Of a stretch of 64,000 nt of DNA, positions 1 to 60,236 are shown in pieces (position 1 is the first letter of the stretch; each line of letters opens with the position of its first letter). The stretch lies in the NCBI GenBank assembly GCA_036381415.1, contig DASVCV010000012.1, forward strand, positions 10,717 through 74,716, in the 5' to 3' direction. A program made the position numbers and the translations under genes. Source of the stretch: Patescibacteria group bacterium (GTDB lineage Bacteria > Patescibacteriota > Microgenomatia > UBA8517). Under the pieces are notes generated by a model. It was not told the origin of the DNA, searched no databases, and was given only the letters and a program-made list of their open reading frames with translations.

Positions 1-1032
1 TATAAACATATTTAATACTCTACTTATATTTTTCCCCGATACATCTATAAAAACACCAACACTCTCATCCATTGCCTCTACAATCGCGCCCCTTCTTGAT
101 CCAACAACTGGTGTCCCACAAGAAAGAGATTCAATTATAACTCTTCCAAACCCTTCTTCATGAGTCGATGGAACAATAACAACGTCACTAGCCGAATAAT
201 ATATAGGCAAATATCTATTATCTATTTTACCTATAAAATTTAAATTTGAAAGTTTCGCTTGTGCATCTCTTACATCATCTGCCATTGGCCCATCCCCAAT
301 AATCAAAAACTCTACAGTTTTTGTTATCCTTGCAGCATCAATTAAATCCATAATACCTTTAACCGCAACAAGTCTGCCAACAAACAAGCAGTAAAATTTC
401 TTACCACTTAATCCCAACTTCTTTCTAGCCCTTAACTTATTAATAGGAGAGAAAATTTTCTGGTTGACCCAGTATGTAAAAACTGAAACCTTCTCGCTAT
501 TCACATTTAGGTCAAGAACTTCACTTTTTGACTGCTTTGAAAGAGTTAAGACATGGTTGCTTCCATTAAAAAGCTTTTGACAAAACTTCGAATATAATCC
601 TGATTCTGGAAAACGATAAATTGAATGAGTAGATACCACCACCTTTTTACCAAACAATTTTCCCATGACAACACCTATTGCTCCAGCAACTAAACCTTGT
701 GCATGTATTACTTTAATCTTACTTCTATTCCAAAAAATAAAGATAAAACTCATCATAAATAGTCCTGGTGCTAAGTAAACAAACTCCAATATTGGATATT
801 TTTCCAAAAGTAAAAATAAATTTGCCCTAATCCATGGAAACCTGTATATAACATATCCTTTTCCTCTCTCAATATATTTACCCCTTGCCCTAGTTACCAA
901 AGGCTGATAAGTCAAAACAAAAAACTTCAATCCCTTCTTAACTCCTTCATCAATTAAATCATCCAAATGAGTCTCTACCCCTCCTACATTTGGACGAAAG
1001 GGTGTAGTTAAAAGTAAAACTCTACCCTTCAT
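1..1032 (-). CDS. GT4 (group 1) glycosyltransferase; 5' end at 1032, 3' end truncated by the window edge
   Basis: Reverse translation gives MKGRVLLLTTPFRPNVGGVETH... and a C-terminal EEGFGRVIIESLSCGTPVV E-x7-E motif typical of GT4. The ATG overlaps the stop of the upstream gene. Confidence 0.7.
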   Translation of the reverse strand, partial: MKGRVLLLTTPFRPNVGGVETHLDDLIDEGVKKGLKFFVLTYQPLVTRARGKYIERGKGYVIYRFPWIRANLFLLLEKYPILEFVYLAPGLFMMSFIFIFWNRSKIKVIHAQGLVAGAIGVVMGKLFGKKVVVSTHSIYRFPESGLYSKFCQKLFNGSNHVLTLSKQSKSEVLDLNVNSEKVSVFTYWVNQKIFSPINKLRARKKLGLSGKKFYCLFVGRLVAVKGIMDLIDAARITKTVEFLIIGDGPMADDVRDAQAKLSNLNFIGKIDNRYLPIYYSASDVVIVPSTHEEGFGRVIIESLSCGTPVVGSRRGAIVEAMDESVGVFIDVSGKNISRVLNMFI

Positions 1033-1855
1033 CTAACCTCCCTCTAACATATCCTACCAACCCTCCAGCCATTTCACACCCAAACATATAAAACATTGCA
1101 ATACTTAATAGTGGATTACTTACCAACTTTCTCCATTTTTTATAAAAAACAGGTCTTAAAAAATAAATAGTTTTACTACTAACTAGAGGAATGTTTTGTT
1201 TTTTTAAATATTTGTGTGCAAGCTTGGCATAATAGAATTTTTTCCTAACTAAAGAATATAAAGAAGGTATTCTTTCATAATGGTAAATAACTGACCTGAC
1301 CCTATCTATTTTGTATCCCATTTTTCCAACACTCTCTGGCAACTCCCAATCTTCAGGCCCAGTAATCAACTCATCGTATCCTCCTGCTTTATTAAATGTG
1401 CTTTTCCTGAAAAATCGAGCAGCATCTGTTGTTGCATCACCTGACTCATTGTAAAAAGATCTCTCATAAGCTTTAACTCTCTCCCAAAAATTTGATGCAA
1501 GAGACTCTTCAGGAATCACAATTCCCCCTATCTCCTTATTACCTTCAATCTTTTTTACACACTCCGATAAAACATTTTCAGTTAGTTCCATGTCAGCATC
1601 CAAAAATAAAAGATACTCTCCACTGGCTTTCTTTGCCCCAAAATTTCTCTGCGCAGATCTTTCAGGACCATAGGTATAAACTTTTCTTGTAAATTTTTTA
1701 GCAATACCTAAAGTATTATCTCTAGATCTATTATCAACTACTATTATTTCCTTACTCGCGTCTTTCTGACCTTTTACACTTTGTAAAAGCCGCCCCAATA
1801 CCTTTTCCTCATTCTTAGTCGTAACTACCACAGAGATTAAGTTTTTCTTTTTCAT
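1022..1855 (-). CDS. GT2 family glycosyltransferase
   Basis: SVVVTTKNEE...VVDNRSRDNT...LFLDADM: GT2 N-terminal signature with a DxD-type motif. Confidence 0.8.
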   Translation of the reverse strand: MKKKNLISVVVTTKNEEKVLGRLLQSVKGQKDASKEIIVVDNRSRDNTLGIAKKFTRKVYTYGPERSAQRNFGAKKASGEYLLFLDADMELTENVLSECVKKIEGNKEIGGIVIPEESLASNFWERVKAYERSFYNESGDATTDAARFFRKSTFNKAGGYDELITGPEDWELPESVGKMGYKIDRVRSVIYHYERIPSLYSLVRKKFYYAKLAHKYLKKQNIPLVSSKTIYFLRPVFYKKWRKLVSNPLLSIAMFYMFGCEMAGGLVGYVRGRLDEG

Positions 1856-1909
1856 TGGCTAAATGATATCATAAATAAATTTACTCCTTGAGAGCAAAAC
1901 AGTAGAGTT

Positions 1910-2473
1910 ATGTCTTTAGCAAACATCACATCAAAACATAGAGGCAAATTAATAATAAAAGCCTACAAAAATAGCTTAAAGAAAAATCACAAAGTAATTG
2001 ATATTGGTTGCGGTAACGGAGTGATTACTACTCAATTAAAAGACTTCTTCAAATTTAAAGTAATCGGGTGTGACATTATAAACTATCTTTTAACCGACAT
2101 TCCATTTAGAAAAATGACTAAAGACAGTCAGATCCCCTTTCGCAATAAGTCCTTTGACATTTCCATGTTTAACGACGTCCTTCACCATATGCCAAAAGAA
2201 GTACAAATTAAAATGTTGAAAGAAGCATTAAGAGTAAGCAAAAAAGTTTTAATATTTGAAGTTCAGCCAACTATTTCAGGAACCATTTTTGATTTCATAT
2301 TAAATAAAATTCACAATTTTAATATGTATATTCCTTTTACTTTTAGAAAAACTGAGGATTGGGCAAAAGTATTTGAAAACTTAAATTGTAATTATAAAGT
2401 TATAACTGTTGATAGACCAACTTTTTACCCGTTTTCTCATGTTGCTTTCGTTTTGACAAAAACAAAGGACTAA
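1910..2473 (+). CDS. Class I SAM-dependent methyltransferase
   Basis: [12 protein letters not shown] glycine-rich SAM motif I; 187 aa; the 3' end overlaps a convergent gene. Confidence 0.7.
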
Positions 2474-4886
2474 CCTTTAATCTCCAAAACCCAATACCGC
2501 ACATCTTTGCCAACACCAACCCATGCTTAAAGGCTTTCATCTTAGATTTTCCAGCGACTCTCTTTTTGTAATGAACAGGCACTTCAATTATATCCAAGTT
2601 GTTTTCAGCAGCTCCAAACAATAAATCAAAGTCTCCCCATGATTTTCCACTCATTTTAACCTTCTTGTAATCACTTTTATATAAAGCTTTAGTACCACAA
2701 AGCGTATCTGTTATTCTTACACCTAAAAGCCAGGAAAATATCCAGCTAAAAACTAAATTTCCCACCAAATTAAGCTGTCTCATGGCTTGATCTTCCATTG
2801 GATAAATTAATCGGGTGCCATTTACAAAAGTTCCCAGCCCTTTTTCAAAAATATTAAAAAATCTCGGCAATTCCTCCGGAGGAACAGCCATATCTGCATC
2901 TAAAATCATTACGACATCCCCTTTAGAAGCATTCATCCCTTCCTTAACAGCCCAACCCTTACCTCTATTAGGTTTATACGAAACAAGCCTCAAGTTCTTA
3001 TACTTTCTCATCAATTGTTTAACTTCTCTTGCAGTCTTGTCCTTCGATCCATCGTCTACCACAATTATCTCAGTTCCCTTACCCATCTTAGGCACTCTAC
3101 TAATACAGTTTTTAATATTTTCCTCTTCATTAAAACAAGGAATAACAACTGAACAGCTAAGTTTTTTAGTAACTGCCAAATCCGCCTTGCTTGCAACAAT
3201 ATACTGCTCCAAGCAAAAACGATTTAGGAATGGGGTTTGCTGAACAACTGAATTAACCCATCTGCTGACAAAAGGTATGTGGACAGGAAATATTAATTTA
3301 TATCCACACTCTTCAACTTGATAACCTGATATATTTACAATATTTTTTAAATCCTGGAGTCTTAACCAATTCTTCTCACCTTCTGCCCTTTTTAAATTAA
3401 ACTTTTCTAAAACGGAAAAAACTTGTATCCATTTTGGGTTCAAGGAAGTAAGGATTATTTTTGATTTTGTTGTTGTATTATCTTTTAGTTTTTCAAGAAC
3501 AGTTTGGATATCTTCTAAATGATCAACTGAGTTCGGCATTATAACATAGTCAAAGCTACCTCCTATATTTATATTTTCGGGCTTGGAATTAATAAATTTA
3601 ATCTGTGAGTATCTTCTTTTTGCAGAAAGCATAATGTTCTCATCAGTATCAACACTTACAGCTTTCTTTGGATAAAGACTCGCTAGAATATCTCCCAACC
3701 CATACCCTACTTGCAATACATTTGCCCCTTCAGGAATAGACGATTTAAAAATCTGCCGCAATGAGTTATGGAAGTACCAGTTCTTTTCTCTCCAATAATC
3801 AAGACTCTTACTCATTGAAAAAGAAACAGCTTCTCTAGAAAACGCACTGTTTTTAACAATATCTTCAATCGTTGTATCAATATCATATTCATACTTCCAT
3901 TTAGGATAATGACCCTTAAACTTTTCTACAGAAGAAACATACCAAATATGGTCTCCAGTTCTATTTTCGTCTTTATATTCTGTAATTGCCTTTTTACCAC
4001 TGATATCTTCAATCTTTTTAATCGCCTCAATCATAGAAATGTTGGCAAATCTTGAACCTCCCATGTTATAAACCTCACCAATTCTTGGTTTTTGGTAAAA
4101 ATTATAAAAAGCATTTAGTAGATCATGGGAGTGGATATTATCTCTTACTTGCTTTCCTTTATACCCATATATAGTGTACTTACGTTCAGTTAAAATACAC
4201 TTAACTAAATAAGATAAAAATCCATGTTGCTCTGTACCTGCATGCCCAGATCCGGTAAGACACCCTCCCCTAAAAACACCAGTTGCTAAGTTAAAATATC
4301 TTCCATATTCCTGAACCATAAGATCCGCTGCTGCTTTTGAAACACCAAATAAAGAATGAGTGCTATTATCAATAGACATTGTTTCATCAATACCGTTTTT
4401 ATATTGATGTTTTGGACTAATCTCGTATCTAGTTTTTAATTCAATTAAGGGAAGTCTGTTAGGAGTATCTCCATAAACTTTATTTGTTGATGTATATATA
4501 AATACTCCATCAGAAGCATGACGCTTAAAACATTCAAGCAAATTTAATGTTCCATTGGCATTTACTCCAAAGTCAGTAAGAGGCTCCTTCGCAGCCCAGT
4601 CATGCGATGGCTGCGCAGCAGTGTGAATAATTAAATCAAACTTATGTTTTTCAAATATTTCTTCTAACTTATCAAAATCCCTTATATCATTCGAATAGTG
4701 AGAATAGTTTTTATATATCCTAAGAAGCTTTTTTACGTTTGGCTCAGTACTTCCTTCACTACCAAAGTAGTATTCCCTCATATTGTTGTCTATTCCAACT
4801 ACTTTGTACCCTAGATTAGAAAAAAAATGTACCGACTCAGATCCTATTAGTCCGCCTGATCCGGTAACTAAAATTGTCTTTGCCAT
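2400..4886 (-). CDS. Trifunctional fusion: NAD-dependent sugar epimerase (possibly CDP-paratose 2-epimerase-like), class I SAM methyltransferase, and GT2 glycosyltransferase (Dpm1-like)
   Basis: N-terminus [13 protein letters not shown] Rossmann fold plus [11 protein letters not shown] and HIWYVSS. Middle region [17 protein letters not shown] motif. C-terminus [37 protein letters not shown]. 828 aa. Confidence 0.75.
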
Positions 4887-4932
4887 TTCGGGTCCATATT
4901 ATATACTTACCAATTAGAAGTCAACTGTAAAT
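4887..4932. promoter_or_regulatory. Short divergent intergenic region (probable bidirectional promoter)
   Basis: 46 bp of AT-rich sequence between the divergently oriented 2400-4886 (-) and 4933-5946 (+) genes; it is the only place transcription of both could start. Confidence 0.4.
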
Positions 4933-5946
4933 ATGTCAAAAAAATATAAAATTATTGTTACTGGATCAACAGGTTTTGTAGGAAGAAGATTAATAAAACT
5001 TCTAGTTAAAAAATATAACAGCAAAGATATTCTTTGTCTAATCTGGGACCGAAATAGCAATCTTGAAAAATCAGGAAGAAAAATTCTCAAAGACCTAAAA
5101 CTCAACACAAAAAAAATTGATTTAGTAACAGGGCAGGGACTTAAAAACCTTCCCAAATCTCCAAAGCTCATTATTCATCTCGCAGCCAACACAGATACAA
5201 ATGAAAAGGATCACAGAGTAAACGACATAGGAGTTAAAAATCTACTAGATGCTTTTAGCCCCATAGCACCAGACACACATATTATCCACATTAGTACCAT
5301 GGTAGCAATGAGTGGAAGAAAAAATTGTTCTAAACCTTTCAGTGAATCAAACCCTCTTTCTCCAAACAATGAATATACTAGAACAAAAGCAAATGGAGAA
5401 AAAATCATACTGGAAAGACAAAAAAAAGAAAACTTCAGGCTAACGATTTTAAGACCAAACACTATTTATGGTAGCGGTATGAGACCAGATAGTCTTTTTG
5501 ATTTTGTTAAAAAACTTATCCTTAAAAAGTCACTACTTGCTAGACTTAATTGGCCAGGACTTTCAAGTCTTATCTGTGTTGATGATGTAGCTAAAGCAAT
5601 ACTTCTAGCTGTAAATAACCCCCCAAAACCTGGTAAGAACAATATTTTCTTCTTGCATGGAGAAAACATAACTCTTGCTGAAATAAGTCGCCAGCTTCAT
5701 CAAAAGCTAAACACTCCCTATAAAGTGATAGTAATGCCAAAATTATTTTGGAGCATGGCTTCTTTAGAAAGATATTTCATACCAATACTAGAAAAGGTAA
5801 CAAACCCAAAAACTTTCAACCTCGCCTGGAGGGCTTCACTAATAGTTGAAAATGTAATCTATTGTAATTCAACCAAAATGAAAAAAACATTTCCTACCTG
5901 GTCACCTAGAAAATTAAGTGAGGAAATAAAAAGGATAACTATTTAA
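4933..5946 (+). CDS. NAD-dependent epimerase/dehydratase family protein
   Basis: IIVTGSTGFVGRRL Rossmann motif; 337 aa; specificity not determinable. Confidence 0.7.
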   Translation: MSKKYKIIVTGSTGFVGRRLIKLLVKKYNSKDILCLIWDRNSNLEKSGRKILKDLKLNTKKIDLVTGQGLKNLPKSPKLIIHLAANTDTNEKDHRVNDIGVKNLLDAFSPIAPDTHIIHISTMVAMSGRKNCSKPFSESNPLSPNNEYTRTKANGEKIILERQKKENFRLTILRPNTIYGSGMRPDSLFDFVKKLILKKSLLARLNWPGLSSLICVDDVAKAILLAVNNPPKPGKNNIFFLHGENITLAEISRQLHQKLNTPYKVIVMPKLFWSMASLERYFIPILEKVTNPKTFNLAWRASLIVENVIYCNSTKMKKTFPTWSPRKLSEEIKRITI

Positions 5947-5948
5947 GC

Positions 5949-6947
5949 CTACTTGAAGTATTTTTCTTTTACCTGTTCCTCTATCCACTTATATGTCTCC
6001 CCCAAACCTTCCTCTAGAGATATCTTTGGCTCCCATTTAAGAACCTTCTTCAAACGAGTATTATCAGAATTTCTTCCTCTTACTCCTTGTGGTCCTTCAA
6101 TATGTTTAATTTTAATTTTCACTCCTGCAATATTTGCAACCAATTTAGCTAGGTCATTTATACTTATTAACCTATCTTGTCCTAAATTAAGTGGTTTATC
6201 ATAATCAGATCTCATCAGCTTGAAAATTCCTTCAGTGCAATCATCAATATAACAAAAAGATCTTGTCTGTTTTCCATCTCCCCATATTTCAATCTCAGGA
6301 TTACCGCTTAATTTTGCAAAAGCAACTTTTCTACACATAGCAGCAGGAGCTTTTTCTCTCCCACCCTCCCATGTCCCATGAGGACCAAAAATATTATGAA
6401 ATCTCACAATCCTAGTTTCAATTCCAAAATCCTGCTTATAATGTGTACACAACCTCTCCATCACAAGTTTTTCCCATCCATATGCATCTTGTGGAAAAGC
6501 TGGATAAGCATCATCTTCTTTTAGAGGAACAACCTTTGCTTTAGTTTGTTTAAATTCAGGGTACACACAAGCCGAAGACGTGTAGAAATACCTCTTAGCC
6601 CCATTTACTCTTGCTGCTTCAAGAGTATGGGTATTAATTAAAGAATTATTGCGAAGAATAATAGAATGATTTGATGAGATAAATCCCATCCCACCCATAT
6701 CAGCTGCCAAACCAAAAACCTCCTCAATTCCTCTCGTTGCCTGCAAGCAATTATCCCATCTTCTTAAGTCTAAAATTTCAAATTCATCAGCATCACTTTC
6801 TTTATACTCAGGATACTTAATATCTACTCCTCTAACCCAATATCCTTTTCCTTTTAAGTAAGTCACCAAATGGTGTCCAATAAATCCACCTGCTCCAGTT
6901 ACTAAAACTCTTTTTCTATTGTTCTCTGCTTTTTTCTTTTTTGGCAT
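5949..6947 (-). CDS. GDP-mannose 3,5-epimerase (GME)-like NDP-sugar epimerase
   Basis: Long collinear matches to plant GME as I recall it: LAADMGGMGFISSNHS, SSACVYPEFKQ, RFHNIFGPHGTWEGGREKAPAAMCRK, WGDGKQTRSF, GPQGVRGRNSDN. Confidence 0.75.
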   Translation of the reverse strand: MPKKKKAENNRKRVLVTGAGGFIGHHLVTYLKGKGYWVRGVDIKYPEYKESDADEFEILDLRRWDNCLQATRGIEEVFGLAADMGGMGFISSNHSIILRNNSLINTHTLEAARVNGAKRYFYTSSACVYPEFKQTKAKVVPLKEDDAYPAFPQDAYGWEKLVMERLCTHYKQDFGIETRIVRFHNIFGPHGTWEGGREKAPAAMCRKVAFAKLSGNPEIEIWGDGKQTRSFCYIDDCTEGIFKLMRSDYDKPLNLGQDRLISINDLAKLVANIAGVKIKIKHIEGPQGVRGRNSDNTRLKKVLKWEPKISLEEGLGETYKWIEEQVKEKYFK

Positions 6948-7007
6948 TGTGAAACATTATAATACCAATCTCTACAATTTGTAAAAGGCAAAAATAAAAA
7001 TTGAAAT

Positions 7008-12141: not shown

Positions 12142-12145
12142 ATTA

Positions 12146-26819: not shown

Positions 26820-26835
26820 AAATTCTAAACATGTC

Positions 26836-28614: not shown

Positions 28615-28616
28615 CT

Positions 28617-41071: not shown

Positions 41072-41076
41072 GAATA

Positions 41077-49711: not shown

Positions 49712-49738
49712 GTTAATTATATTATCACGTTGAATGCT

Positions 49739-51316: not shown

Positions 51317-51317
51317 A

Positions 51318-52067: not shown

Positions 52068-52072
52068 ATATC

Positions 52073-53623
52073 TTATTTGTCTATATTAAATCTAACCCTT
52101 CTTTGCACACTCACCCCTCCAAATTTTACCTCTTCTTGAATACTTCCGATACCAGCTTGTCTAACCATCCAAGATTGAAGCCTTTCGGGATGGGGTGGAT
52201 CAGTCTCAAATACTGTATAAAGTAAACTAACGTGTTTATCTAGCTTCATGTTGCATAAATCCACTCCACACCTTTTAGTTGCCTGCCAAACAAATAAGTA
52301 GTTATAAGAATAAGGAATAACTGGCGGAACATAGCTATCAAAATTAAACTCCCTTCCTCCAGCATCTTTAAAAGCCCAATCAACTGCTTGAAGTTCATTA
52401 CCCATTGCAACAGTAGTAGGACCATCAACACCAGAAACTACATAATTTCTATCTAGGAGTAAATTCTGCTGGAAAAAGACAATCAAAAATAATGCTGGGA
52501 TTACAAATCTTGCCCTGCCTTGCACAAAATTCACAACCAATATTGAGAATACTAAAACAAATATAAAGTAATACCCTGTAAAGTAGTAATCATAGACATT
52601 CCCAAAATTTCCCTGGAAGAAAAACATACCAATTAAAGGAGAAACAAGTAAAAGTAAAATCACTTTAAAATATTTGTTAGCCCAAAGACTTCTCCAGTTA
52701 ATTAGAAGTGATGCAAACATAAAAGCAGTTGCAACCAATTTTCCTTTTTCACCACTTGGATTAATTTTAGACATAAATACATCCTGATAAAAAGGAACTC
52801 TAATCTTTACCATTTCCCAGAAAGAAACCTTAAAAGATTTGTCTGTAAATAAAAACTTGGCAATTGCAGTTCTTAAAATACCCTGATGAATAAGATCAAA
52901 AATAATTTGTGGGACAAATGCAAAAAAAATTAGAAAAATGCTTGCAATCATTATTTTCTTACTACCAAGATTGCGTCTTTGCCAGATTGCAAAAATAACT
53001 ACAGCAGGAAAGTAAAAAACTTCAGCTGCACTTCCAAACTGCATTGCCATACCAATTAAAAACCCAATAGCAAGCCAAGCCCACTTTTTTCCTTCCATCG
53101 CCAAAAACATACTAAAAATAAGTAACATGCTAATTAAAAGCATTGGAGTGGGATTTGATAGCCAACGGGAGGCCAAAAGTAAATAATATGATAATCCTGC
53201 AATTGCTGCAGCAAATACACCAGTTGACCTATCTGCCACTTTAGAAGCAATAATGTAAACAAATACAACAGCTACAAGTGTTGTTAACGAAAGAAAAACC
53301 GCTGGAAATCCAGGATCTCCACCACCAATTAAATAAAAAGGGGCAATTAGCCAGTAATACCAAGGTCCACGAAATATTCCAGCTATCCCAGTAGTAGGTC
53401 CAATTAAAAACATTTTTCCCTTGTGCCAGAAATCCCAAATTACCTGCGCATCTCTTCCTTGGTCATAATAGAACCCTAGAAGCTGGTCTACTCTATAAAC
53501 CCTAAAAAATAAGGCAGCAATTAAAACTATAAAAAGTAAAATATAGATAACATGATGATCTTTTACTTCTCTTTTAAATCTTCCCATCCACTCTTTTATG
53601 TTCCCTTTTATTTTCTTAATCAT
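52073..53623 (-). CDS. PMT-like GT-C membrane glycosyltransferase, subfamily B (B2)
   Basis: YDQGRDAQVIWDFWHKGKMFLIGPTTGIAGIFRGPWYYW parallels B1 and B3. Confidence 0.6.
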   Translation of the reverse strand: MIKKIKGNIKEWMGRFKREVKDHHVIYILLFIVLIAALFFRVYRVDQLLGFYYDQGRDAQVIWDFWHKGKMFLIGPTTGIAGIFRGPWYYWLIAPFYLIGGGDPGFPAVFLSLTTLVAVVFVYIIASKVADRSTGVFAAAIAGLSYYLLLASRWLSNPTPMLLISMLLIFSMFLAMEGKKWAWLAIGFLIGMAMQFGSAAEVFYFPAVVIFAIWQRRNLGSKKIMIASIFLIFFAFVPQIIFDLIHQGILRTAIAKFLFTDKSFKVSFWEMVKIRVPFYQDVFMSKINPSGEKGKLVATAFMFASLLINWRSLWANKYFKVILLLLVSPLIGMFFFQGNFGNVYDYYFTGYYFIFVLVFSILVVNFVQGRARFVIPALFLIVFFQQNLLLDRNYVVSGVDGPTTVAMGNELQAVDWAFKDAGGREFNFDSYVPPVIPYSYNYLFVWQATKRCGVDLCNMKLDKHVSLLYTVFETDPPHPERLQSWMVRQAGIGSIQEEVKFGGVSVQRRVRFNIDK

Positions 53624-54618
53624 ATTTTTCCTTCTTTCTCCTTCATAAGCTCTTTTGCAGTATCTAACACTTTCTCTACAGCTTTTTCAAATGGCAAATC
53701 TAAAATCTTTGCAGCAGCTGCCCACCTGTGTCCACCTCCACCAAGCTTTGCTGCAATTTTAGACACATCCACTCCGGTCCTAGATCTAAAACTTACATCC
53801 AATCTTTTATCTTCTCCAATCATCACAATTCCAATCTTGCTTCCAGACACACTTTGAAATATTAAATCTGCAATTTCACTTTTAGCTCCAACTGGTCTTT
53901 CATATTTTTTGTATATCTCAAACTTCGTAGCCGACCAAGCAATTCCACTCTCCTCATCTATTTTCAAATTATTTAGAACCTCAACCCAAAACTTAATTGT
54001 TAATAATTCATAACTTTGAAACAGATTTAAAATTATTGTTTCTCTATCAGCTCTTTTTGTCATTAAATCAGCAACCACTACAAAAGTACTCTCCTTAGTT
54101 TCTCTAAACCTTAACCCTCCTGTATCTCCCATCACACCTGTTAATAGTGAAGTAGAAAGATTCGCATCCATGTTTATTCCCCAACCTCTAAAAAGCCAAA
54201 ATAAAATCTCGCAGTTTGATGGAGAACTCTCATCAACCATATTAATTTTCCCAAATTTTTCATTTGTTTCATGGTGATCAATCACAATAATAGGAATTGA
54301 AGGGATGCTGACTTTTTTATTTCCAGTAACTCTTTCCCAGCTTGCAGAATCTAAAACTACAAAAAGATCCCAAGCAGTAAAATCAAACTTTTCATAGTCT
54401 ACTATCTCTATATCTTTCGTTTCTTTTAAAAAAGAAAGATTTTTAGGAATTGGACTTGGGCTTACTATTTTTGCTTCCTTTCCTAACCCCTTCACAAAAT
54501 GCAAAAACGAAACTGCACTTCCAACACTGTCTGCATCACAATTAGCATGACAATTAATAAGAACTTTTTCTGATTTTTTTACTTCATCCAAAATTTCCTG
54601 TGAGTGAGGATAATTCAT
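53620..54618 (-). CDS. nrnA: DHH-family phosphoesterase (NrnA-like nanoRNase/pAp phosphatase)
   Basis: DHH motif VIDHHETN and DHHA1 GGGGHRWAAAAK; ATGA overlap on the upstream side and an adjacent stop/start on the downstream side. Confidence 0.7.
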   Translation of the reverse strand: MNYPHSQEILDEVKKSEKVLINCHANCDADSVGSAVSFLHFVKGLGKEAKIVSPSPIPKNLSFLKETKDIEIVDYEKFDFTAWDLFVVLDSASWERVTGNKKVSIPSIPIIVIDHHETNEKFGKINMVDESSPSNCEILFWLFRGWGINMDANLSTSLLTGVMGDTGGLRFRETKESTFVVVADLMTKRADRETIILNLFQSYELLTIKFWVEVLNNLKIDEESGIAWSATKFEIYKKYERPVGAKSEIADLIFQSVSGSKIGIVMIGEDKRLDVSFRSRTGVDVSKIAAKLGGGGHRWAAAAKILDLPFEKAVEKVLDTAKELMKEKEGKI

Positions 54619-54619
54619 T

Positions 54620-56173
54620 TCACTTATTGTGGCCTAACTTATAAACAATAACTCCTGATACTTCCCATTGGTCAAGTATTTTGCTCCAGCCAAAGTTGGC
54701 AATCCATGCAGAAGGATCATGGGTTGGGTCACACTTTTCCTTAGGTTTCTCACAAACCACAAATAACTGATCAGTAACTGTGTAGGCCACTGCATTTGGG
54801 TCAGTATCTACTACCTTTGCTCCCCATACCTGGAAAAAGTACTGATACACATCTCTATTATTTCTTTCAGAAATAGTTGCAATATTAAACCTTTGTCCAT
54901 TTGCCCTATCCCTTATAAAAGCTGCAATATCTTGTGATCTTTTAAGCTGATTGTTTGGTCCAACATTCAAAGCACTATTTGAAAAATTAGCATAAGCTAA
55001 AATCAAAAACCCAATTACAAGTAATATTTTTACAATATTATTTTTATATAGCTTCTGATAAATAGCTCCAGTAAGAATAAATGGAACAGCAAAAACAAAT
55101 CCGTAATAGTGATCAAAAATATTTTGTTTATACAATCCAAATCCAAGTAGTGCAAATCCCATCCACACAATAAGAAGATAAAATGCACTCCCCAATTTTT
55201 TTCTTTTTGTAAGAACAAGAAAAGCGCAAATTCCTGTTACAATAATTGTCGTCCACTTCCCAACCTCAACATCCCTCCCTGCTATTAGTCTTGCATTTAT
55301 ATCTTCAAATCTTGGATACATCTTTGGAATTGCATTCCAGGGTTTAATTGAAACTGTATCTTGTCTTACAGTAAAGAACTGCTTTATTGCATTAAAGTTT
55401 TGCCAATTATGTCTAATATCAAAGATAAGAAGGGGAGACATCAAAATTGCAAAAGCAGCTACCCCCCAAATAGTATTCATAATTAATTTTCTTTTCTCTT
55501 TTTTATCCTTCTTGGCCTGCCAAAAAGTAAGAAGCCACAAAATTCCCATTACAGGAATAAGCGCCAGTCCTAAGTAGTGTGACTGCACAACAAATGCAAA
55601 AGAAATCCCAGCTAGAATTAAAAGTCTTAATTCTTTCTTACTCCACACTCTCCACATTAAATAAATTGAAGCCAATGCAAAAAAAGGCATGATGTTGGGG
55701 TTCCAAGAAGATCTTGAATAAATTACAACTGTAGGACTGATAGCATAAAAAAATGCTGCAAAAAAAGCTGCAATGCCTCCAAACCACTCTCTTGCTACCC
55801 ACCAAACCAAAAATATAGTTAAAACTCCAAGCAAAGCAACCATTACAGCTGGCCCAACAGGCGAGTAGTTGGCAATTAAAAGTGGAATTGCCATCATGTA
55901 GTAGTAAAGAGGACCTAAATACATATTTCCAATTGAAGTTCCAGGTCCAATTAATGGAGGATGCGCCTCTACCCAAAGACGCCTTACTATAATCACATCT
56001 CTTCCTTCATCTCCCAAAAAAGTCATGTATTGATCAATTTTGTAAAGTCTTAGAAATGCACCAACCAAAATAATTAAAACTAATAAAACTGTTTCCTTTG
56101 GGTGATCTTTAACCCATCCCTTAGTTTTTTTAAATATCTGATTTATCCTTTTACCTAATTCAATTTTTGCCAT
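54620..56173 (-). CDS. PMT-like GT-C membrane glycosyltransferase, subfamily B (B3)
   Basis: GDEGRDVIIVRRLWVEAHPPLIGPGTSIGNMYLGPLYYY; HPPL as in eukaryotic PMT loop 1. Confidence 0.6.
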   Translation of the reverse strand: MAKIELGKRINQIFKKTKGWVKDHPKETVLLVLIILVGAFLRLYKIDQYMTFLGDEGRDVIIVRRLWVEAHPPLIGPGTSIGNMYLGPLYYYMMAIPLLIANYSPVGPAVMVALLGVLTIFLVWWVAREWFGGIAAFFAAFFYAISPTVVIYSRSSWNPNIMPFFALASIYLMWRVWSKKELRLLILAGISFAFVVQSHYLGLALIPVMGILWLLTFWQAKKDKKEKRKLIMNTIWGVAAFAILMSPLLIFDIRHNWQNFNAIKQFFTVRQDTVSIKPWNAIPKMYPRFEDINARLIAGRDVEVGKWTTIIVTGICAFLVLTKRKKLGSAFYLLIVWMGFALLGFGLYKQNIFDHYYGFVFAVPFILTGAIYQKLYKNNIVKILLVIGFLILAYANFSNSALNVGPNNQLKRSQDIAAFIRDRANGQRFNIATISERNNRDVYQYFFQVWGAKVVDTDPNAVAYTVTDQLFVVCEKPKEKCDPTHDPSAWIANFGWSKILDQWEVSGVIVYKLGHNK

Positions 56174-56850
56174 AATTTGATTAAATCAGTAATACTTTTG
56201 AGAACTACTTTCATATCTGCTCCTGTCTGCTTCCCAAACTTTCTTGGATAATGATGTACTCCAACCTCAGCAAATCTGTACCCTTTTCTTTTTGCTTTAG
56301 TTAGCATCTCAATTTTAGTTACCTTTTCTTCTCCCACTAAAGGTTGAATAGAATCAAACACTTCTTTCTTTATTACCCAAAACCCACATGAATAATCTTT
56401 TATGGTAAGTCCAAAAATAACTCTTGGGAAAATTCTCCATCCCCATGTAAAAACCTTTCTCATAAATGGATCTGCTCTATGAAGTCTGTAGCCCAAAATT
56501 AAATCCGCTTTGTCTGTATACTCTAAAAACTTTGTAATTTCTCCAAAATCAAACTGTCCATCACTGTCTGCAAAAGCAACCCAGGGATATTTTGCATTTC
56601 TGTATCCTGTCTTCAATGCTCCTCCATATCCAGCATTAGCTTGGTTTACAACCTTAATTCTCTTGTCCTTTTTAGCTAAGGCTTCTGCTATTTCCCTTGT
56701 TCTATCTTTAGATCCATCATTAACAACAATAATTTCCCACTTATTTGCAACCTTCTCTAAAACCTCTTTAGCAGATGTAACTGTAGTTTTTATATTTCCC
56801 TCCTCATTGTAGGCTGGAAAAAATACTGAAAGTGAATCTATTTTTGCCAT
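56155..56850 (-). CDS. GT2 polyprenol-phosphate sugar synthase (Dpm1/GtrB-like)
   Basis: LSVFFPAYNEEGNI..VVNDGSKDRT..FADSDGQ..DYSCGFWVIKKE. Confidence 0.75.
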   Translation of the reverse strand: MAKIDSLSVFFPAYNEEGNIKTTVTSAKEVLEKVANKWEIIVVNDGSKDRTREIAEALAKKDKRIKVVNQANAGYGGALKTGYRNAKYPWVAFADSDGQFDFGEITKFLEYTDKADLILGYRLHRADPFMRKVFTWGWRIFPRVIFGLTIKDYSCGFWVIKKEVFDSIQPLVGEEKVTKIEMLTKAKRKGYRFAEVGVHHYPRKFGKQTGADMKVVLKSITDLIKLWQKLN

Positions 56851-56905
56851 TTGTCATCAAAGTCTAGCATAAAATAAGCCTAGCGTGCTAATATTTGATA
56901 GTTCC

Positions 56906-58054
56906 ATGAAAAAATTAACAAATATTGTCCCCATCCTCTTTTTAGCCATAATTCCAACTCTTTTAATCTGGCTCCCTTTCTTTTTGAGGCTAGATAATAT
57001 TGCAAATGTACCTTTAGCTAAAAATGGAATGGCTACAATTGTTGCAAACTATGATGGCCCTCTTTATTTAATTGTTGCTAAAACTCTCTATAATCTTCCT
57101 CAAATTGCTCAAAATTATCAGTTTCCACTTCCGCTTGAGTATTACGCAGCCCACTTTCCACTCTTTCCTCTTCTTATTAGGCTATTTTCTCCTGTCTTTG
57201 GATATCCCTACTCAATGCTGTTTCTTACAGTTGCCTCATCCTTCCTTGCCCTCTTCTTCTTCCACAAACTAATTTTAAAATATGTTAAACCCCATGATGC
57301 TCTTTGGATTACCCTTGTCTTTGCCCTCTTTCCAGGCAGATGGCTGGTGGTTAGATCAGTTGGCTCTCCAGAGCCCCTTTTTGTAGCTGCAATTATTGCA
57401 TCTCTTTACTACTTTACCGAAAAAAAGTATCTGTATGCAGCTTTCTGGGGAGTAGTAGCACAATTAACAAAATCCCCAGCTATTCTGTTGTTTATTGCAT
57501 ACTTAGGATCAATTGCAGCTCCCCAACTAAACAATATTATTACTGGCAAATTCAAAAAGATTAATTTAAAACCTCTTGCTATAGTTGCCATCCCCCTTTC
57601 CCTTCTTGCCGTCTTTTACTTTTTTGGTTTAAAAACAACCTTTAATGATTTTCTTGCCTACTTCCACTCAGGTGACAATATTCATCTTCTTTTTCCACCT
57701 TTCCAGATCTTTAACTATTCTGCACCTTGGGTAGGAACATTTTGGCTAGAAGAAGTACTATTTATATACCTATTTGGAGCAGCAACAGTAGCAACATTCA
57801 TTAAAAGAAAAGAATACACACTTGCATGGTTTACTGGAATATTTTTCACCTCTCTTCTTTTTGTATCGCACCGAGACTTACTAAGATATGCTCTTCCTTT
57901 AGTACCTTTTACTTTCGTAGCATTTCATAAATACTTAACTATGAAGGAATTTAAATACATTTTTGCCCTTCTTATCATCCCCACCTATTTATTTGCTCTT
58001 GCCTTCATTTCCCAAAATGTAATGCCAATTGCAAACTGGGGACCATTCCTATAA
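56906..58054 (+). CDS. Polytopic membrane protein, possible GT-C (DUF2029-like)
   Basis: About 11 TM helices; loose pattern match to 23136-24401 (LFPGRWLVVRSVGSPEPLFVAAIIAS vs LFNPVILYNSAVWGQTDPIVNLLGLVS). The track start at 56885 is GTG; the ATG is at 56906. Confidence 0.35.
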   Translation: MKKLTNIVPILFLAIIPTLLIWLPFFLRLDNIANVPLAKNGMATIVANYDGPLYLIVAKTLYNLPQIAQNYQFPLPLEYYAAHFPLFPLLIRLFSPVFGYPYSMLFLTVASSFLALFFFHKLILKYVKPHDALWITLVFALFPGRWLVVRSVGSPEPLFVAAIIASLYYFTEKKYLYAAFWGVVAQLTKSPAILLFIAYLGSIAAPQLNNIITGKFKKINLKPLAIVAIPLSLLAVFYFFGLKTTFNDFLAYFHSGDNIHLLFPPFQIFNYSAPWVGTFWLEEVLFIYLFGAATVATFIKRKEYTLAWFTGIFFTSLLFVSHRDLLRYALPLVPFTFVAFHKYLTMKEFKYIFALLIIPTYLFALAFISQNVMPIANWGPFL

Positions 58055-58093
58055 ATCTTCTAGGCTTGCAACCTCTGCTATAATTATATCTAC

Positions 58094-58522
58094 ATGAGTC
58101 CTGACAGGGGATTTTTCCATATAGCTCAAAACTGGAGAGTAAGAAACGAAAGGCTAACACTAACTGGCAAAGAATGTTCGCATTGCGGCTCTAAGATATT
58201 TCCTCCTAGGCCGATTTGTCCTACTTGTGATTATGAAGTAGAGGGAGAATTCCTTGGAATGGGAACTTTAAAAGTAGCACTTTCCCACATTAAATCTTCT
58301 AAAAGACAAATTGAATTTTGCATTTCTATTGTTAAGGATAATGTAGAAATGACTATTAATTTAAATGGTAAGTCACACACTCTTGGACTAAAAGCTGGAA
58401 TGCAGATTCCTGTCTTTGTAAGAAAATCAAGAAACGGAGGAGATCCTTATTATAGTTTTGATCTTAACCAACCAGCTTCTGAAGCCAACCAAGACCTGGG
58501 ATCTTCCAAGTCTTCCAAATAA
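58094..58522 (+). CDS. Zn-ribbon/OB-fold protein (DUF35/COG1545-like)
   Basis: CSHCGSKIFPPRPICPTCDY matches the C-x2-C..PPR..CP-x-C rubredoxin-like ribbon of DUF35; the 3' end overlaps a convergent gene by 59 nt. Confidence 0.5.
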   Translation: MSPDRGFFHIAQNWRVRNERLTLTGKECSHCGSKIFPPRPICPTCDYEVEGEFLGMGTLKVALSHIKSSKRQIEFCISIVKDNVEMTINLNGKSHTLGLKAGMQIPVFVRKSRNGGDPYYSFDLNQPASEANQDLGSSKSSK

Positions 58523-59633
58523 GAATATTGTAGGCTGCATAGTTATATGGAAGTACAAAAAATCCAACAGCAATTATAAGCATAATCTGCCTATACTGAT
58601 TCCCAAATAATTTGGTTCCTACTCCAACTACCACTGCCTGAATTAAAATTGCCCCCAATGATGTAAAGTTAAATTGCAAAAACTTGACTATTAACTTGCC
58701 AACAGAAGTAATCTTTCTTTCTGAAAATGTCCAAAAATTATTTAACGTAAAGTTTGAAATAATAGCAAGCTCAGCTCCAAGTGCTGCTGCAATTGCAGTT
58801 GCAAGTCCCAATCTATAAAAAACTTCTAAACCGCCTGCATTAATTAAATATCCAATAAAACCTACTGTTGCAAACTTGAAAAATCTAAGTATTTTTGGAT
58901 TATGTATTTGGAAAAGAAAAATGACTTTAAGGCTTTCAATCATTTCATTTTTAATAATCTTAGATTCCCCAGCTGTCCTTGCCATAAAAGTAATTGGAAC
59001 CTCAGCTACCTTAGCACCATTATTAAGGCATGCTGCCAAAATATGTAGTTTATATGCAAAACTGTTTGAGTAAAGGTGATCCAAATCAACTTTATCTAAA
59101 ACTCCCTTTACCTTAGTTAATTTAAAACCAGTTGTAAGATCATGAACACCAAATCTTAAAAGTCCTACTCTTGCAATTAAATTTCCCACAACACTTAAAA
59201 ACTTTCTGTTAAATCCCCACTCCTTTGGAATTGACCCGCCTGGTATGTATCTTGATCCAATAATATATTCATAACCTTCGTCAATTTTCTCAACTAGTCT
59301 GTGCATCTCATCAGGCCTGTGTTGAAAATCTCCATCAAATTCCATCACATAGTCAGCATTCATTTCTTTCATGGCATATTTAAATCCTTTAGCATATGCC
59401 TTCCCTAATCCTTCTTTTTTAGGATTTAGAAGAAGATGCACCCATTTATATTTCTTTGCATAGTCTCTTACTACCTCATATGTTTTATCAGGTGAAGTAT
59501 CATCAACTACCAACAATTCCATTTTATGAGACAAAGACTTTTCTATCTTTGGAAACTCATCAGCCAAAGCTTCAATCATTTTGGAGATATTATCCCTCTC
59601 ATTATAAGTAGGGATTACAACGACAACTTTCAT
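58464..59633 (-). CDS. GT2 polyprenol-phosphate sugar synthase fused to a C-terminal GtrA-like 4-TM domain
   Basis: VVVIPTYNERDNI..VVDDTSPDKT..EFDGDFQ..TTGFKLTK, then FFKFATVGFIGYLINAGGLEVF (GtrA-like). The track start at 59654 is GTG; the ATG is at 59633. Confidence 0.75.
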   Translation of the reverse strand: MKVVVVIPTYNERDNISKMIEALADEFPKIEKSLSHKMELLVVDDTSPDKTYEVVRDYAKKYKWVHLLLNPKKEGLGKAYAKGFKYAMKEMNADYVMEFDGDFQHRPDEMHRLVEKIDEGYEYIIGSRYIPGGSIPKEWGFNRKFLSVVGNLIARVGLLRFGVHDLTTGFKLTKVKGVLDKVDLDHLYSNSFAYKLHILAACLNNGAKVAEVPITFMARTAGESKIIKNEMIESLKVIFLFQIHNPKILRFFKFATVGFIGYLINAGGLEVFYRLGLATAIAAALGAELAIISNFTLNNFWTFSERKITSVGKLIVKFLQFNFTSLGAILIQAVVVGVGTKLFGNQYRQIMLIIAVGFFVLPYNYAAYNILIWKTWKIPGLGWLQKLVG

Positions 59634-59634
59634 T

Positions 59635-60195
59635 TTATTGTTGATTAGCAGCACTCATTAAGAAGGTGGGCAATAAAGCTACAAATGCAAATGCAAGGAT
59701 AATAGACAAAAGAGTAATTATCACTGCAGGAACTGCAAAAACAAGAATTGATTTCTTCATACTAAATTTATGCATCACAGTTCCCCCGATTACAAAAATA
59801 ACTAACGCATAAATAGATCCAGCAAGAGGACCTATGATTGGAATAAAATTAAGTAATGGCTTAGGAGTATTTGAATACACATATAACTGATATGTGTTCA
59901 CAAAGGTTCCTGTACCTCCAAAGATCTTTGCCCAAACATGAATAATTGCAATTACTATAAAAATAAGTAGAAGTGTAAGTATATAAACTACAACTAAGGC
60001 AGGAATATTTAAACCCTTGCCTCCCTGAAGAACAACTGCTGCCAAAGTTTGCAATATTGTGCCAACCAAAGATAAAACTGCATAATAGATAAATGCATCC
60101 TTAATACCGTCTTCCTTCTTTGCTCCCTCAAAAAATATCTTTGGCTTTGTAAGAACCAATTTTGCTTTTTTTACAATTTCTTTCACAAATTCCAT
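59635..60195 (-). CDS. Small polytopic membrane protein (Yip1-domain-like)
   Basis: 186 aa; a cytosolic N-terminus followed by about 5 TM helices. Confidence 0.4.
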   Translation of the reverse strand: MEFVKEIVKKAKLVLTKPKIFFEGAKKEDGIKDAFIYYAVLSLVGTILQTLAAVVLQGGKGLNIPALVVVYILTLLLIFIVIAIIHVWAKIFGGTGTFVNTYQLYVYSNTPKPLLNFIPIIGPLAGSIYALVIFVIGGTVMHKFSMKKSILVFAVPAVIITLLSIILAFAFVALLPTFLMSAANQQ

Positions 60196-60236
60196 ATCTT
60201 AGAATATAATAACACTAGCGTATAAGAAATCAAACT

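Follow-up and report, generated by a model that had tools for sequence, protein, structure and literature searches.

Gene content and organization of the locus

We analyzed a 64,000-nucleotide stretch (hereafter, the window) of contig DASVCV010000012.1 from a Patescibacteria group bacterium of the Microgenomatia (assembly GCA_036381415.1), and found that positions 1-60195 form a gene cluster dominated by polytopic membrane glycosyltransferases of the GT-C type, which very probably serves extracytoplasmic glycosylation from lipid-linked sugars at the outer face of the membrane. In total, 57 open reading frames (ORFs) of at least 100 aa were mapped in the window, 51 of which were non-nested. The ORFs were scanned against Pfam (gathering cut-offs) and NCBIfam, paralogy was assessed by all-against-all BLAST, and profiles were compared with one another by hhalign. 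The cluster was ~100% coding (computed over 1022-60195), with nearly all genes on the minus strand, and it extends past the left edge of the window, where a GT4 gene (1-1032) is cut. The packing of genes by 4-nt start/stop overlaps, which a first-pass annotation of this DNA had pointed out, was exact at 10 gene junctions.

The GT-C-like genes numbered 21 (22 modules; g24 taken in as probable, g16 as degenerate, g20 left out) and occupied 35,088 nt, or 58% of ~60.2 kb. To our knowledge, no higher density of GT-C genes is known; Mycobacterium tuberculosis has roughly 15-20 such genes in 4.4 Mb. Thirteen polytopic proteins passed the Pfam gathering cut-off: 11 for PMT and/or PMT_2 (g11, g12, g13, g15, g17, g21, g22, g31, g38, g40 and g42), one for YfhO (g27) and one for PTPS_related (g37). 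Another seven polytopic ORFs had no Pfam match at E <= 0.001, and six of these could be tied to GT-Cs by paralogy, profile or structure (g24 weakly), with g20 being uncertain. The remaining inventory comprised 12 GT2 domains (g01, g03, g07, g10, g23, g25, g30, g32, g33, g39, g43 and g46), four GT4 enzymes (the partial gene at 1-1032, g06, g09 and g28), two Wzx/MOP flippases (g08 and g35), three methyltransferase domains (g02, g03 and g26) and three short-chain dehydrogenase/reductase (SDR) enzymes (the N-terminal part of g03, g04 and g05). These numbers agreed with the first-pass annotation for the GT-Cs (about 20), the GT2s (about 12) and, by Pfam, the GT4s, flippases and methyltransferases. 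Its four NDP-sugar epimerases/dehydratases should be reduced to three inside the span, since the fourth, RmlB (60904-61911), lies outside. The features of the cluster, together with RmlB, are as follows (S-adenosylmethionine, SAM; transmembrane segment, TM; oligosaccharyltransferase, OST).

1-1032, minus strand: partial GT4 gene, cut by the window edge (Glycos_transf_1 88 bits, Glyco_transf_4 53 bits)
1022-1855, minus strand: g01, GT2 (Pfam Glycos_transf_2 96 bits)
1910-2473, plus strand: g02, SAM methyltransferase (Pfam Methyltransf_11/25)
2400-4886, minus strand: g03, fusion of SDR, SAM methyltransferase and AglJ/Dpm1-like GT2, 828 aa (Pfam, NCBIfam)
4933-5946, plus strand: g04, SDR epimerase/reductase (Pfam Epimerase 86 bits)
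5949-6947, minus strand: g05, GDP-fucose-synthase-like SDR (Epimerase 149 bits; NCBIfam Fcl 130 bits, below cut-off)
7008-8120, minus strand: g06, GT4 (Pfam Glycos_transf_1 132 bits)
8117-8950, minus strand: g07, Dpm1/GtrB-like GT2, probable polyprenol-P-sugar synthase (BLAST to g43; NCBIfam)
8916-10169, minus strand: g08, Wzx/MOP flippase number 2 (Polysacc_synt 68 bits, Polysacc_synt_3 61 bits)
10166-11287, minus strand: g09, GT4 (Pfam)
11266-12156, minus strand: g10, GT2 (Pfam)
12146-13801, minus strand: g11, family-A GT-C, PMT/PMT_2 (Pfam; invariant DE after TM1)
13798-15489, minus strand: g12, family-A GT-C, PMT/PMT_2 (Pfam; invariant DE after TM1)
15498-17228, minus strand: g13, family-A GT-C, PMT/PMT_2 (Pfam; invariant DE after TM1)
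17173-18669, minus strand: g14, PTPS_related/YfhO-like GT-C (BLAST to the N-terminal half of g37; Pfam sub-threshold, 20-21 bits)
18666-20291, minus strand: g15, family-A GT-C (PMT_2 57 bits)
20285-21592, plus strand: g16, family-A derivative without TM1 and the DE loop (hhalign, alignment)
21571-23127, plus strand: g17, family-A GT-C (PMT_2 41 bits, PMT 24 bits)
23136-24401, minus strand: g18, small GT-C, PIG-V/PIG-U-like (BLAST to the C-terminal half of g37; hhalign; motif)
24398-26134, minus strand: g19, family-A GT-C without Pfam match (BLAST to family A; DE motif)
26055-26819, minus strand: g20, 5-TM protein (weak hhalign match to family A; synteny)
26836-28620, minus strand: g21, family-A GT-C (Pfam; paralogy)
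28617-30344, minus strand: g22, family-A GT-C (Pfam; paralogy)
30332-31120, minus strand: g23, rhamnosyltransferase-like GT2 (Pfam; TIGR01556 63 bits, sub-threshold)
31156-32637, minus strand: g24, probable GT-C with FDE motif after TM1 (PMT_2 E 0.0097; hhalign)
32634-33542, minus strand: g25, GT2 (Pfam)
33539-34219, minus strand: g26, SAM methyltransferase (Methyltransf_11 79 bits)
34224-36593, minus strand: g27, YfhO-family GT-C (Pfam YfhO 91 bits, cut-off 28.5)
36556-37581, minus strand: g28, GT4 (Pfam)
37922-38686, minus strand: g30, GT2 (Pfam)
38683-40227, minus strand: g31, family-B GT-C, PMT_2 (Pfam; paralogy with g40 and g42)
40148-41979, minus strand: g32 and g33, two GT2s, g32 rhamnosyltransferase-like (Pfam, NCBIfam)
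41984-43741, minus strand: g34, orphan GT-C with OST-like fold (predicted structure; overlaps the Wzx gene g35)
43698-45188, minus strand: g35, Wzx/MOP flippase number 1 (Polysacc_synt_3 180 bits; NCBIfam MOP flippase 127 bits)
45204-46718, minus strand: g36, GT-C with GDD motif (PMT_2 21 bits; hhalign to family A)
46697-49711, minus strand: g37, fusion of PTPS_related GT-C and g18-like small GT-C, 1004 aa (PTPS_related 32 bits; BLAST to g14 and g18)
49739-51346, minus strand: g38, GT-C, PMT_2/PMT (Pfam)
51318-52067, minus strand: g39, Dpm1/GtrB-like polyprenol-P-sugar synthase (NCBIfam PgfS, ArnC, Dol-P hexose transferase)
52073-53623, minus strand: g40, family-B GT-C (PMT_2 56 bits)
53620-54618, minus strand: g41, DHH/DHHA1 phosphoesterase, NrnA-like (Pfam, NCBIfam)
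54620-56173, minus strand: g42, family-B GT-C (Pfam)
56155-56850, minus strand: g43, ArnC/Dpm1-like polyprenol-P-sugar synthase (PDB ArnC E 7e-15; NCBIfam)
56885-58054, plus strand: g44, small GT-C, Gpi18/PIG-V-like (named homologues; NF046093 E 3.6e-12)
58094-58522: g45, zf-ChsH2/DUF35-type zinc ribbon
58464-59654, minus strand: g46, polyprenol-phosphate-mannose-synthase-type GT2 with GtrA/DPMS TM domain (PDB 5mlz; Pfam)
59635-60195: g47, Yip1-domain membrane protein
60904-61911, minus strand: g49, RmlB, dTDP-glucose 4,6-dehydratase (TIGR01181 453.6 bits against a cut-off of 365)

GT-C families and conserved motifs

Paralogy analysis revealed that eight genes (g11, g12, g13, g15, g17, g19, g21 and g22) constitute one family, here designated family A, whose members share 25-36% identity over their full length and which g19 joined by BLAST (E 1e-47 to 6e-53). 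The Pfam PMT N-terminal domain was matched by six of the eight (not g15 and g19) at 23-45 bits, and the DE pair in the first loop was invariant in all eight members and their orthologues, but neither PMT_4TMC (PF16192) nor MIR was matched by any member in Pfam. PMT_2 (ArnT-like) scores were at least as high as the PMT scores, and public records label the family ArnT-like/COG1807 and many cluster genes 'glycosyltransferase family 39'. A predicted model of family A contained a soluble alpha/beta C-terminal domain (residues 437-551). A second group of paralogues, family B, consisted of g31, g40 and g42.

Most of the other GT-Cs could be linked to these families or to one another. The N-terminal half of g37 was similar to g14 (35% identity, E 2e-89) and its C-terminal half (residues 593-933) to g18 (30% identity, E 2e-38). 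The fusion in g37 may be a 'Rosetta-stone' hint that PTPS_related-type and PIG-V-like modules act as a pair, although a frameshift or an assembly error is possible. The two modules are separate genes in the relative locus L031 (4003-7028; 582 and 439 aa, overlapping by 43 nt), and a pair resembling the two halves of g37 occupies the position of g14 in four genomes (L004, L009, L012 and L019). When orthologue alignments were used in hhalign, g36 (97-98%) and g18 (95%) matched family A, and g24 showed a weak link to GT-Cs (78% to g14, 71% to g13). The protein g16 corresponded to residues 124-507 of the g13 family (hhalign 98%); it lacks the first ~110 residues and is probably non-catalytic or a remnant. 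The g16-g17 pair is inverted between g15 and g18, which adjoin directly in relatives, and looks like a local inverted duplication. The 254-aa g20 (5 TMs) weakly resembled the middle of family A (hhalign 36-39%) and is kept upstream of g19 in three other genomes (L013, L014 and L021); it may have arisen from the central part of a family-A gene. The C-terminus of g27 matched PgfM1/PgfM2 in NCBIfam.

An acidic motif was found in the loop following TM1 and was kept in orthologues: DE in family A, g38 and g24, DD in g36, DQ/DE in family B, HGD in g18 (conserved as HGD(L/I)NN), QD/HD in g14 and g37, and GHD in g34. Since the N-termini are rich in K/R, as read from sequence, this loop should lie outside the cell.

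The GT-C types proposed in the first-pass annotation were recovered for PMT, PMT_2, YfhO and PTPS_related but not for DUF2029: PF09594 did not match g18, the C-terminal part of g37 or g44 even at E <= 10. The nearest labels for these small GT-Cs were Gpi18-like/COG5542, PIG-U (weak) and NF046093. Homologues of g44 carry the JGI name 'Gpi18-like mannosyltransferase' (some with PF13231), and a probable counterpart of g18 in L033 (415 aa, matched by size and position alone) had a weak PIG-U match. We dropped the DUF2029 label, and g18 and g44 are better described as PIG-V/Gpi18-like.

Probable donor synthases, other glycosyltransferases and embedded genes

Five of the GT2 domains (the C-terminal part of g03, g07, g39, g43 and g46), rather than the three originally proposed, fell into a Dpm1-like group with mutual BLAST identities of 26-35% over >195 aa, and they look like polyprenol-phosphate-sugar synthases. 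The clearest similarities were those of g46 to the Pyrococcus furiosus dolichol-phosphate-mannose synthase 5mlz (E 1e-48; the match spans residues 6-345 and takes in the membrane domain), in line with its Pfam composition of GT2 plus GtrA_DPMS_TM (54 bits), and of g43 to ArnC over its full length. The best NCBIfam matches of g39 were those given in the feature list, and g07 was related to g43 (35% identity, E 7e-28) and matched PgfS, PpgS and ArnC. In g03, Pfam delimited an Epimerase domain (residues 5-276), a methyltransferase domain (382-525) and a GT2 domain (579-708), the last of which best matched AglJ (101 bits) and a Dol-P hexose transferase (81 bits) in NCBIfam. By analogy with the logic of ArnA/ArnC, g03 is a candidate for an enzyme that modifies a sugar and then loads it on a lipid carrier. 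The GtrA model, also named in the first-pass annotation, was detected only as the fused domain of g46; no free ORF of GtrA size exists, as ~100% of the DNA is taken up by other coding sequence.

The remaining seven GT2s formed two groups (g01/g10/g30/g33 and g23/g25/g32). The rhamnosyltransferase-like character of g23 and g32 fits the nearby RmlB, which is a probable sugar supplier for the cluster. Among the embedded genes, the NrnA-like phosphoesterase g41 lies inside the GT-C array, has a 4-nt overlap with g40 and occupies the same position in L031; it may be a mere hitch-hiker or may act, for example, in the turnover of carrier lipid or nucleotides. The small genes g45 and g47 flank the Dol-P-Man-synthase-like g46. 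In the mevalonate pathways of archaea, thiolase and HMG-CoA synthase have DUF35 proteins as partners; a tie of g45/g47 to isoprenoid carrier supply is conceivable but speculative.

The orphan GT-C g34 and the overlapping Wzx gene

No family could be assigned to g34 by sequence searches: it had no match in NCBIfam or in Pfam even at E <= 10 (STT3, PF02516, included), and neither a full-length profile nor a profile of its C-terminal domain matched the OST sequences of the PDB. However, its AlphaFold model (pLDDT 89, pTM 0.90) was an unmistakable GT-C. The top 20 Foldseek matches were OST catalytic subunits, DPY19 and AftA, and the fold was closest to that of STT3/AglB/PglB/DPY19, namely a GT-C fold of many TMs whose first external loop carries a conserved acidic residue, followed by an OST-type (AglB-type) C-terminal globular domain. 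The model of g11, used as a control, did not match 3vu0. The hhalign comparison of g34 with family A reached 60% probability, over TM5-8 only.

The gene g34 is highly conserved, and its family is large. More than 1188 close homologues (~50% identity) were found, all of them unnamed, and an exhaustive profile search yielded 1626 clusters at 50% identity, 827 of which had E <= 1e-30. A protein on record that is 100% identical to g34 is annotated as a hypothetical protein of 'Patescibacteria group bacterium'. In five of five genomes (the window and four others), the Wzx gene overlapped the g34-family gene by 38-44 nt, and the downstream order was GT2-GT2-(GT-C)-GT2-GT4-YfhO. Many g34 homologues elsewhere (~1000-1150 aa; P0362, P0366, P0381, P0383, P0401 and others) carry an N-terminal signal-anchored soluble domain of ~430 aa that resembles DUF3863 (PDB 3lm3, E 4e-7; Pfam PF12979 weak), and P0401 (1639 aa) is a natural fusion of Wzx, the DUF3863-like domain and g34, in that order. 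The window itself encodes nothing comparable to this domain. In L033 (Woesebacteria MGGS01000003), the g34 orthologue is immediately followed by an inserted Csm6/Cas02710-like gene (9701-11077) in the opposite orientation, so the block tolerates insertions at that junction.

Conservation of the locus in Microgenomates

A scan of one genome per species detected relatives of g11 at 26 loci (30-62% identity, most 50-62%), including those of Candidatus Microgenomates, Woesebacteria, Shapirobacteria and Gottesmanbacteria metagenome-assembled genomes (MAGs). The synteny comparison suggested at first pass showed that the same order recurs, with the best relatives being Candidatus Microgenomates/Woesebacteria at 50-62% identity. 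These relatives and the Patescibacteria record of the identical g34 protein confirm that the DNA comes from the candidate phyla radiation. The order g25-g23-g22-(g20-g19)-g18-g15-(g14)-g13-g12-g11-g10-g09-g08-g07-g06 was recurrent in ~20 genomes, and the right half (g41 to g26) was retained elsewhere as well, namely on a contig of 749 kb, in Woesebacteria RIFCSPHIGHO2 and on a contig from JGI. Both halves adjoin in OZ246419.1, a closed chromosome of 810,692 bp, where together they span 44 kb or more (327183-371344). The locus is conserved across Microgenomates (Woesebacteria-like Patescibacteria). Content was not constant, with ~14 GT-Cs in the 44-kb block of OZ246419.1 versus 21 here, and g16-g17 and g19-g22 were not universal. 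Because orthologues were 40-64% identical whereas paralogues within the window shared only 25-36%, the family duplications predate the divergence of these genomes, with each copy kept thereafter. The conserved order and the retention of orthologues argue that the copies are not redundant. Several public third-party-annotation (TPA) MAG records with this locus, OZ246419.1 among them, are titled 'uncultured Gammaproteobacteria bacterium' (L004, L005, L009, L012, L014-L016, L021, L024 and L025), which is almost certainly a taxonomic mislabel.

Functions not encoded by the locus

Neither the window nor the gene tables of the related loci L030-L034 contained an initiating phosphoglycosyltransferase (WbaP/WecA type; Bac_transf, Glycos_transf_4/MraY-like), Wzy_C, Wzz, LytR_cpsA_psr (LCP), Glyphos_transf (TagF-type) or an O-antigen ligase, and no ABC transporter or Poly_export (OPX) exporter was present in the window or in annotated relatives. 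The lone Wzy-like trace was a match of g20 to EpsG (E 0.045), and a Wzz match (E 0.2) was not significant. Pfam scans of the window also revealed no lipid-anchor synthesis genes. Together, the absence of initiating enzyme, polymerase, chain-length regulator, ligase, LCP, TagF and exporter indicates that this is not an O-antigen, capsule or teichoic-acid locus. The misfit to O-antigen, lipopolysaccharide and teichoic-acid operon models noted at first pass therefore stands, and the Agl, Gtr-type and mycobacterial GT-C systems are closer.

Non-coding stretches and flanking genes

The sole sizeable non-coding stretch of the cluster is a 340-nt gap (37582-37921), at the place of an additional methyltransferase gene in L031; no remnant of that gene was found in the gap by tblastn. 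A plus-strand ORF spanning the gap (37545-37925) had no family match and is probably spurious, and the nested ORFs at 2815-3243, 8562-8885, 26650-26958, 53552-53857, 55638-55976 and 56510-56812 were likewise judged spurious. The right flank (60237-63939) consists of housekeeping or unrelated genes, and the window's long intergenic spacers (273 and 342 nt) are located there. Searches for tRNAs and Rfam elements across the window, these spacers included, gave none. Besides RmlB, the flank encodes:

60237-60902: TrmD
62185-62688: PF04308 RNaseH-like protein
63031-63939: CAP-domain secreted/membrane protein

Discussion

Patescibacteria live attached to other cells, and the organism considered here is a peptidoglycan-containing monoderm bacterium. 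That glycosylation takes place at the outer face from lipid-linked sugars, as already proposed in the first-pass annotation, is indicated by the similarities of g46 to 5mlz and of g43 to ArnC and by the invariant acidic motifs after TM1. Overall, we consider it probable that the locus is a chromosomal glycosylation factory running on polyprenyl-phosphate-linked sugars. Every enzyme class in it is already known, and what is new is the combination of GT-C density, a fixed array of eight paralogues, an unannotated OST-like family coupled to Wzx and class-wide conservation.

The locus shares its logic with several systems but is a member of none. The Agl cluster of Haloferax volcanii (AglJ/G/I/E, AglD, AglR, AglS, AglB and AglP; PMC3871713) is one of the closest analogues: in both, a Dpm1-like GT2 charges polyprenol monophosphate (here, the C-terminal part of g03 resembles AglJ, and g39/g43 a Dol-P hexose transferase), the glycan is lengthened by additional GT2s, an STT3-fold enzyme is accompanied by a SAM methyltransferase and a flippase of the Wzx/MOP type, a PMT_2-type GT-C adds the last sugar from polyprenol-P-sugar outside the cell, and dTDP-rhamnose genes lie nearby. 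On the other hand, g34 has neither WWDYG nor an STT3 profile match, there are ~20 GT-Cs here versus two, and the organism is a bacterium. Three-component systems (GtrA/GtrB/Gtr-type GT-C, the pentofuranose systems of PMC11127046, and ArnC/ArnT) likewise combine a synthase, a flippase (maybe MOP/MATE) and a GT-C acting outside, with auxiliary epimerases; their requirements have counterparts here in the GtrB/Dpm1-type synthases and, for flipping, in the GtrA_DPMS_TM domain of g46 and the two MOP/Wzx proteins. The differences are the scale (five synthases and 21 GT-Cs), the chromosomally fixed, orthologous rather than serotype-variable genes, and the lack of a recognizable base-glycan pathway (O-antigen, lipid A) in the window.

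Synthesis of lipomannan, lipoarabinomannan and arabinogalactan in Corynebacterineae (Ppm1, PimE, MptA-D, EmbA-C, AftA-D; PMC3485146, PMC2440535, PMC12041525) also relies on many GT-C paralogues, few polyprenyl-P-sugar donors and assembly outside the membrane, with small PimE/PIG-V-like GT-Cs (here, g18 and g44), and AftA, AftB, AftD, EmbA and PimE were among the structural matches. However, the mycobacterial Pfam families were undetectable in sequence here, a decaprenyl-P-arabinose pathway was missing, the genes form one block rather than being dispersed, and the genome is ~5 times smaller. With the YfhO/CsbB/GtcA system of teichoic-acid glycosylation and the Pgf system of Streptococcus mutans (PgfS, PgfM1, PgfE and PgfM2), the locus shares the YfhO-family g27 with its PgfM1/PgfM2 match, the PgfS matches of g39, g46 and g07, and an epimerase; the scores were far below equivalog cut-offs, however, teichoic-acid synthesis genes were absent, and YfhO represents one of 21 GT-Cs. 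Finally, actinobacterial and eukaryotic PMTs (GT39) resemble family A in the PMT N-terminal domain and the loop-1 DE, and a DPMS-type synthase (g46) is present here, but family A differs in its low PMT scores with equal or higher PMT_2 scores, in the missing PMT_4TMC and MIR, and in its own C-terminal alpha/beta domain.

A staged model can be put forward as a plausible but tentative scheme. The SDR enzymes (g03 N-terminal part, g04, g05 and RmlB) and the methyltransferases would tailor nucleotide sugars, and the C-terminal part of g03, g07, g39, g43 and g46 would charge polyprenyl phosphate with single sugars on the cytoplasmic side. One or two lipid-linked oligosaccharides would be built by the remaining seven GT2s and the four GT4s, maybe with a monophosphate start as for AglJ (PMC3871713). 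Transport of the lipid-linked sugars to the outer face would then fall to the GtrA-type domain of g46 and the two flippases of the Wzx/MOP kind, after which g34 would hand over the glycan en bloc to an acceptor at the cell surface. The ~20 other GT-Cs (eight PMT/ArnT-like paralogues, three of family B, and YfhO, PTPS_related and PIG-V-like types) would add single sugars from lipid-monophosphate donors on the outer side of the membrane, with a linkage or acceptor particular to each enzyme. The ~20 transferases, each kept as an orthologue, far outnumber the ~5 donor synthases, so what sets the paralogues apart is probably the acceptor or the linkage rather than the donor.

Protein as the main acceptor, with an S-layer protein or a pilin as our preferred guess, is possible if somewhat doubtful; it is favored by the OST-type domain of g34, the PMT-type features of family A, the Pgf-like matches of g27, g39 and g46, and the lack of polymer-attachment genes. 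Within this scheme, the g34 family, which has no Pfam or NCBIfam model and was translationally coupled to a Wzx flippase in all genomes examined, could be a novel bacterial branch of the STT3/AglB lineage that has lost WWDYG and transfers glycans en bloc to surface proteins at a non-canonical site, a proposal that we regard as unlikely in this specific form; g34 may still act like an OST, on another acceptor signature.

A number of observations weigh against these proposals. The WWD motif was absent from 50 g34-family sequences, in which the last TM is followed by the consensus ...GVVLTYPFD..., so that T-(Y/F)-P-(F/Y)-D stands at what is presumably the position equivalent to WWDYG of PglB. In OSTs, WWDYG opens the C-terminal domain and reads the +2 Ser/Thr of the sequon. 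The lack of WWDYG and of an STT3 profile match excludes a classical N-X-S/T oligosaccharyltransferase, and by its sequence g34 falls outside the STT3/AglB/PglB family (GT66) as defined. The fused DUF3863-like domain, which presumably belongs to a superfamily of the glycoside-hydrolase/deacetylase type, may point to a carbohydrate rather than a protein as the acceptor of g34. With no initiating enzyme for a diphosphate-linked oligosaccharide found in the window, the oligosaccharide branch needs an AglJ-like monophosphate start or a gene elsewhere. Moreover, MOP/MATE-family flippases can also carry polyprenyl-P-monosaccharides (PMC11127046), hence the Wzx genes are no proof of an oligosaccharide intermediate. 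In addition, three of the GT-C candidates (g16, g20 and g24) are either weakly matched or degenerate.

As the main alternative, some of the same features would suit a non-protein surface polymer, such as a membrane-anchored lipoglycan or a wall-linked polysaccharide, polymerized and branched outside the membrane by successive GT-Cs in the manner of corynebacteria and mycobacteria, with g34 using a glycan or lipid as acceptor. Such a product is favored by the glycosylation of teichoic acids by YfhO enzymes, as well as by the ArnT-like/COG1807 label of family A, the missing WWDYG of g34, the presence of AftA among its top structural matches and the extracytoplasmic DUF3863-like domain of its homologues; the ratio of ~20 GT-Cs to ~5 donor synthases is also the pattern of mycobacterial GT-C pathways (PMC3485146, PMC2440535). 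We nevertheless consider a polymer somewhat unlikely, given that no LCP, Wzy, chain-length, export or lipid-anchor synthesis genes were found in the window, that g34 is structurally closest to peptide-directed GT-Cs and has an OST-type C-terminal domain, and that family A matches Pfam PMT and has a PMT-style DE motif.

A set of independent three-component modules, which would decorate a pre-existing glycan with variable side-chain sugars and thereby generate surface or antigenic diversity against phages or hosts instead of forming one integrated pathway, is quite unlikely. Local sets such as g38-g39-g40, g42-g43 and g44/g46 do resemble Gtr modules, the GT-C content varies between genomes as described above, and three-component systems are widespread (PMC11127046). 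However, the core genes g11, g12, g13, g15, g18, g22, g34 and g27 are orthologous and in fixed order across genomes that are ~50-60% identical, the opposite of the strain-variable pattern of serotype-converting modules. Furthermore, Pfam scans detected no phage or mobile-element genes in the window, which also lacks tRNAs, and the base glycan would still need a maker, while the GT2/GT4 and Wzx genes are interleaved with the GT-Cs. As to an artefact, in which the assembly would be chimeric or the supposed glycosyltransferases would be polytopic transporters, we tested this reading, found no evidence in its support and rejected it as next to impossible. GC content was even (0.30-0.38 in every 2-kb window), GC skew was negative in 32 of 32 windows, and the recurrence of the gene order in more than 20 independent assemblies, including a closed chromosome, rules out a chimera. 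Chance is likewise far too small to account for the inventory, given the individual E-value of each assignment and this synteny. Only two of the ~24 polytopic proteins, both Wzx/MOP, are transporters, and the rest are GT-C or GT-C-derived, with six of the seven Pfam-less ORFs tied to GT-Cs as noted above.

In searches of the literature on candidate phyla radiation (CPR)/Patescibacteria/Microgenomates and GT-C-type enzymes, we found this locus undescribed, apart from passing remarks: one source mentions '29 glycosyl transferases' for a Microgenomates genome (PMC7143001) and another 'unexplored glycosylation processes in Saccharibacteria' (bioRxiv 10.1101/2024.11.25.624915). Patescibacteria have reduced genomes, ~0.8-1 Mb in these relatives, and a block of 44-60 kb amounts to ~5-7% of the genome. 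Such a large share and the class-wide preservation of gene order imply a central role of the product in the envelope or in host contact. The glycosylation locus provides a concrete gene set for a surface glycoconjugate of these organisms and possibly new enzymes for glycoengineering. The eight ancient GT-C paralogues offer a natural series for studying the evolution of acceptor and linkage specificity, and the g34 family, being large and unannotated and having an OST-like C-terminal domain, merits its own Pfam and CAZy family. If the proposed role of g34 is true, g34 and the eight PMT-like paralogues would represent an archaeal/eukaryote-style general protein glycosylation system in Microgenomates, and such a system would build the heavily glycosylated surface by which these episymbionts meet their hosts.

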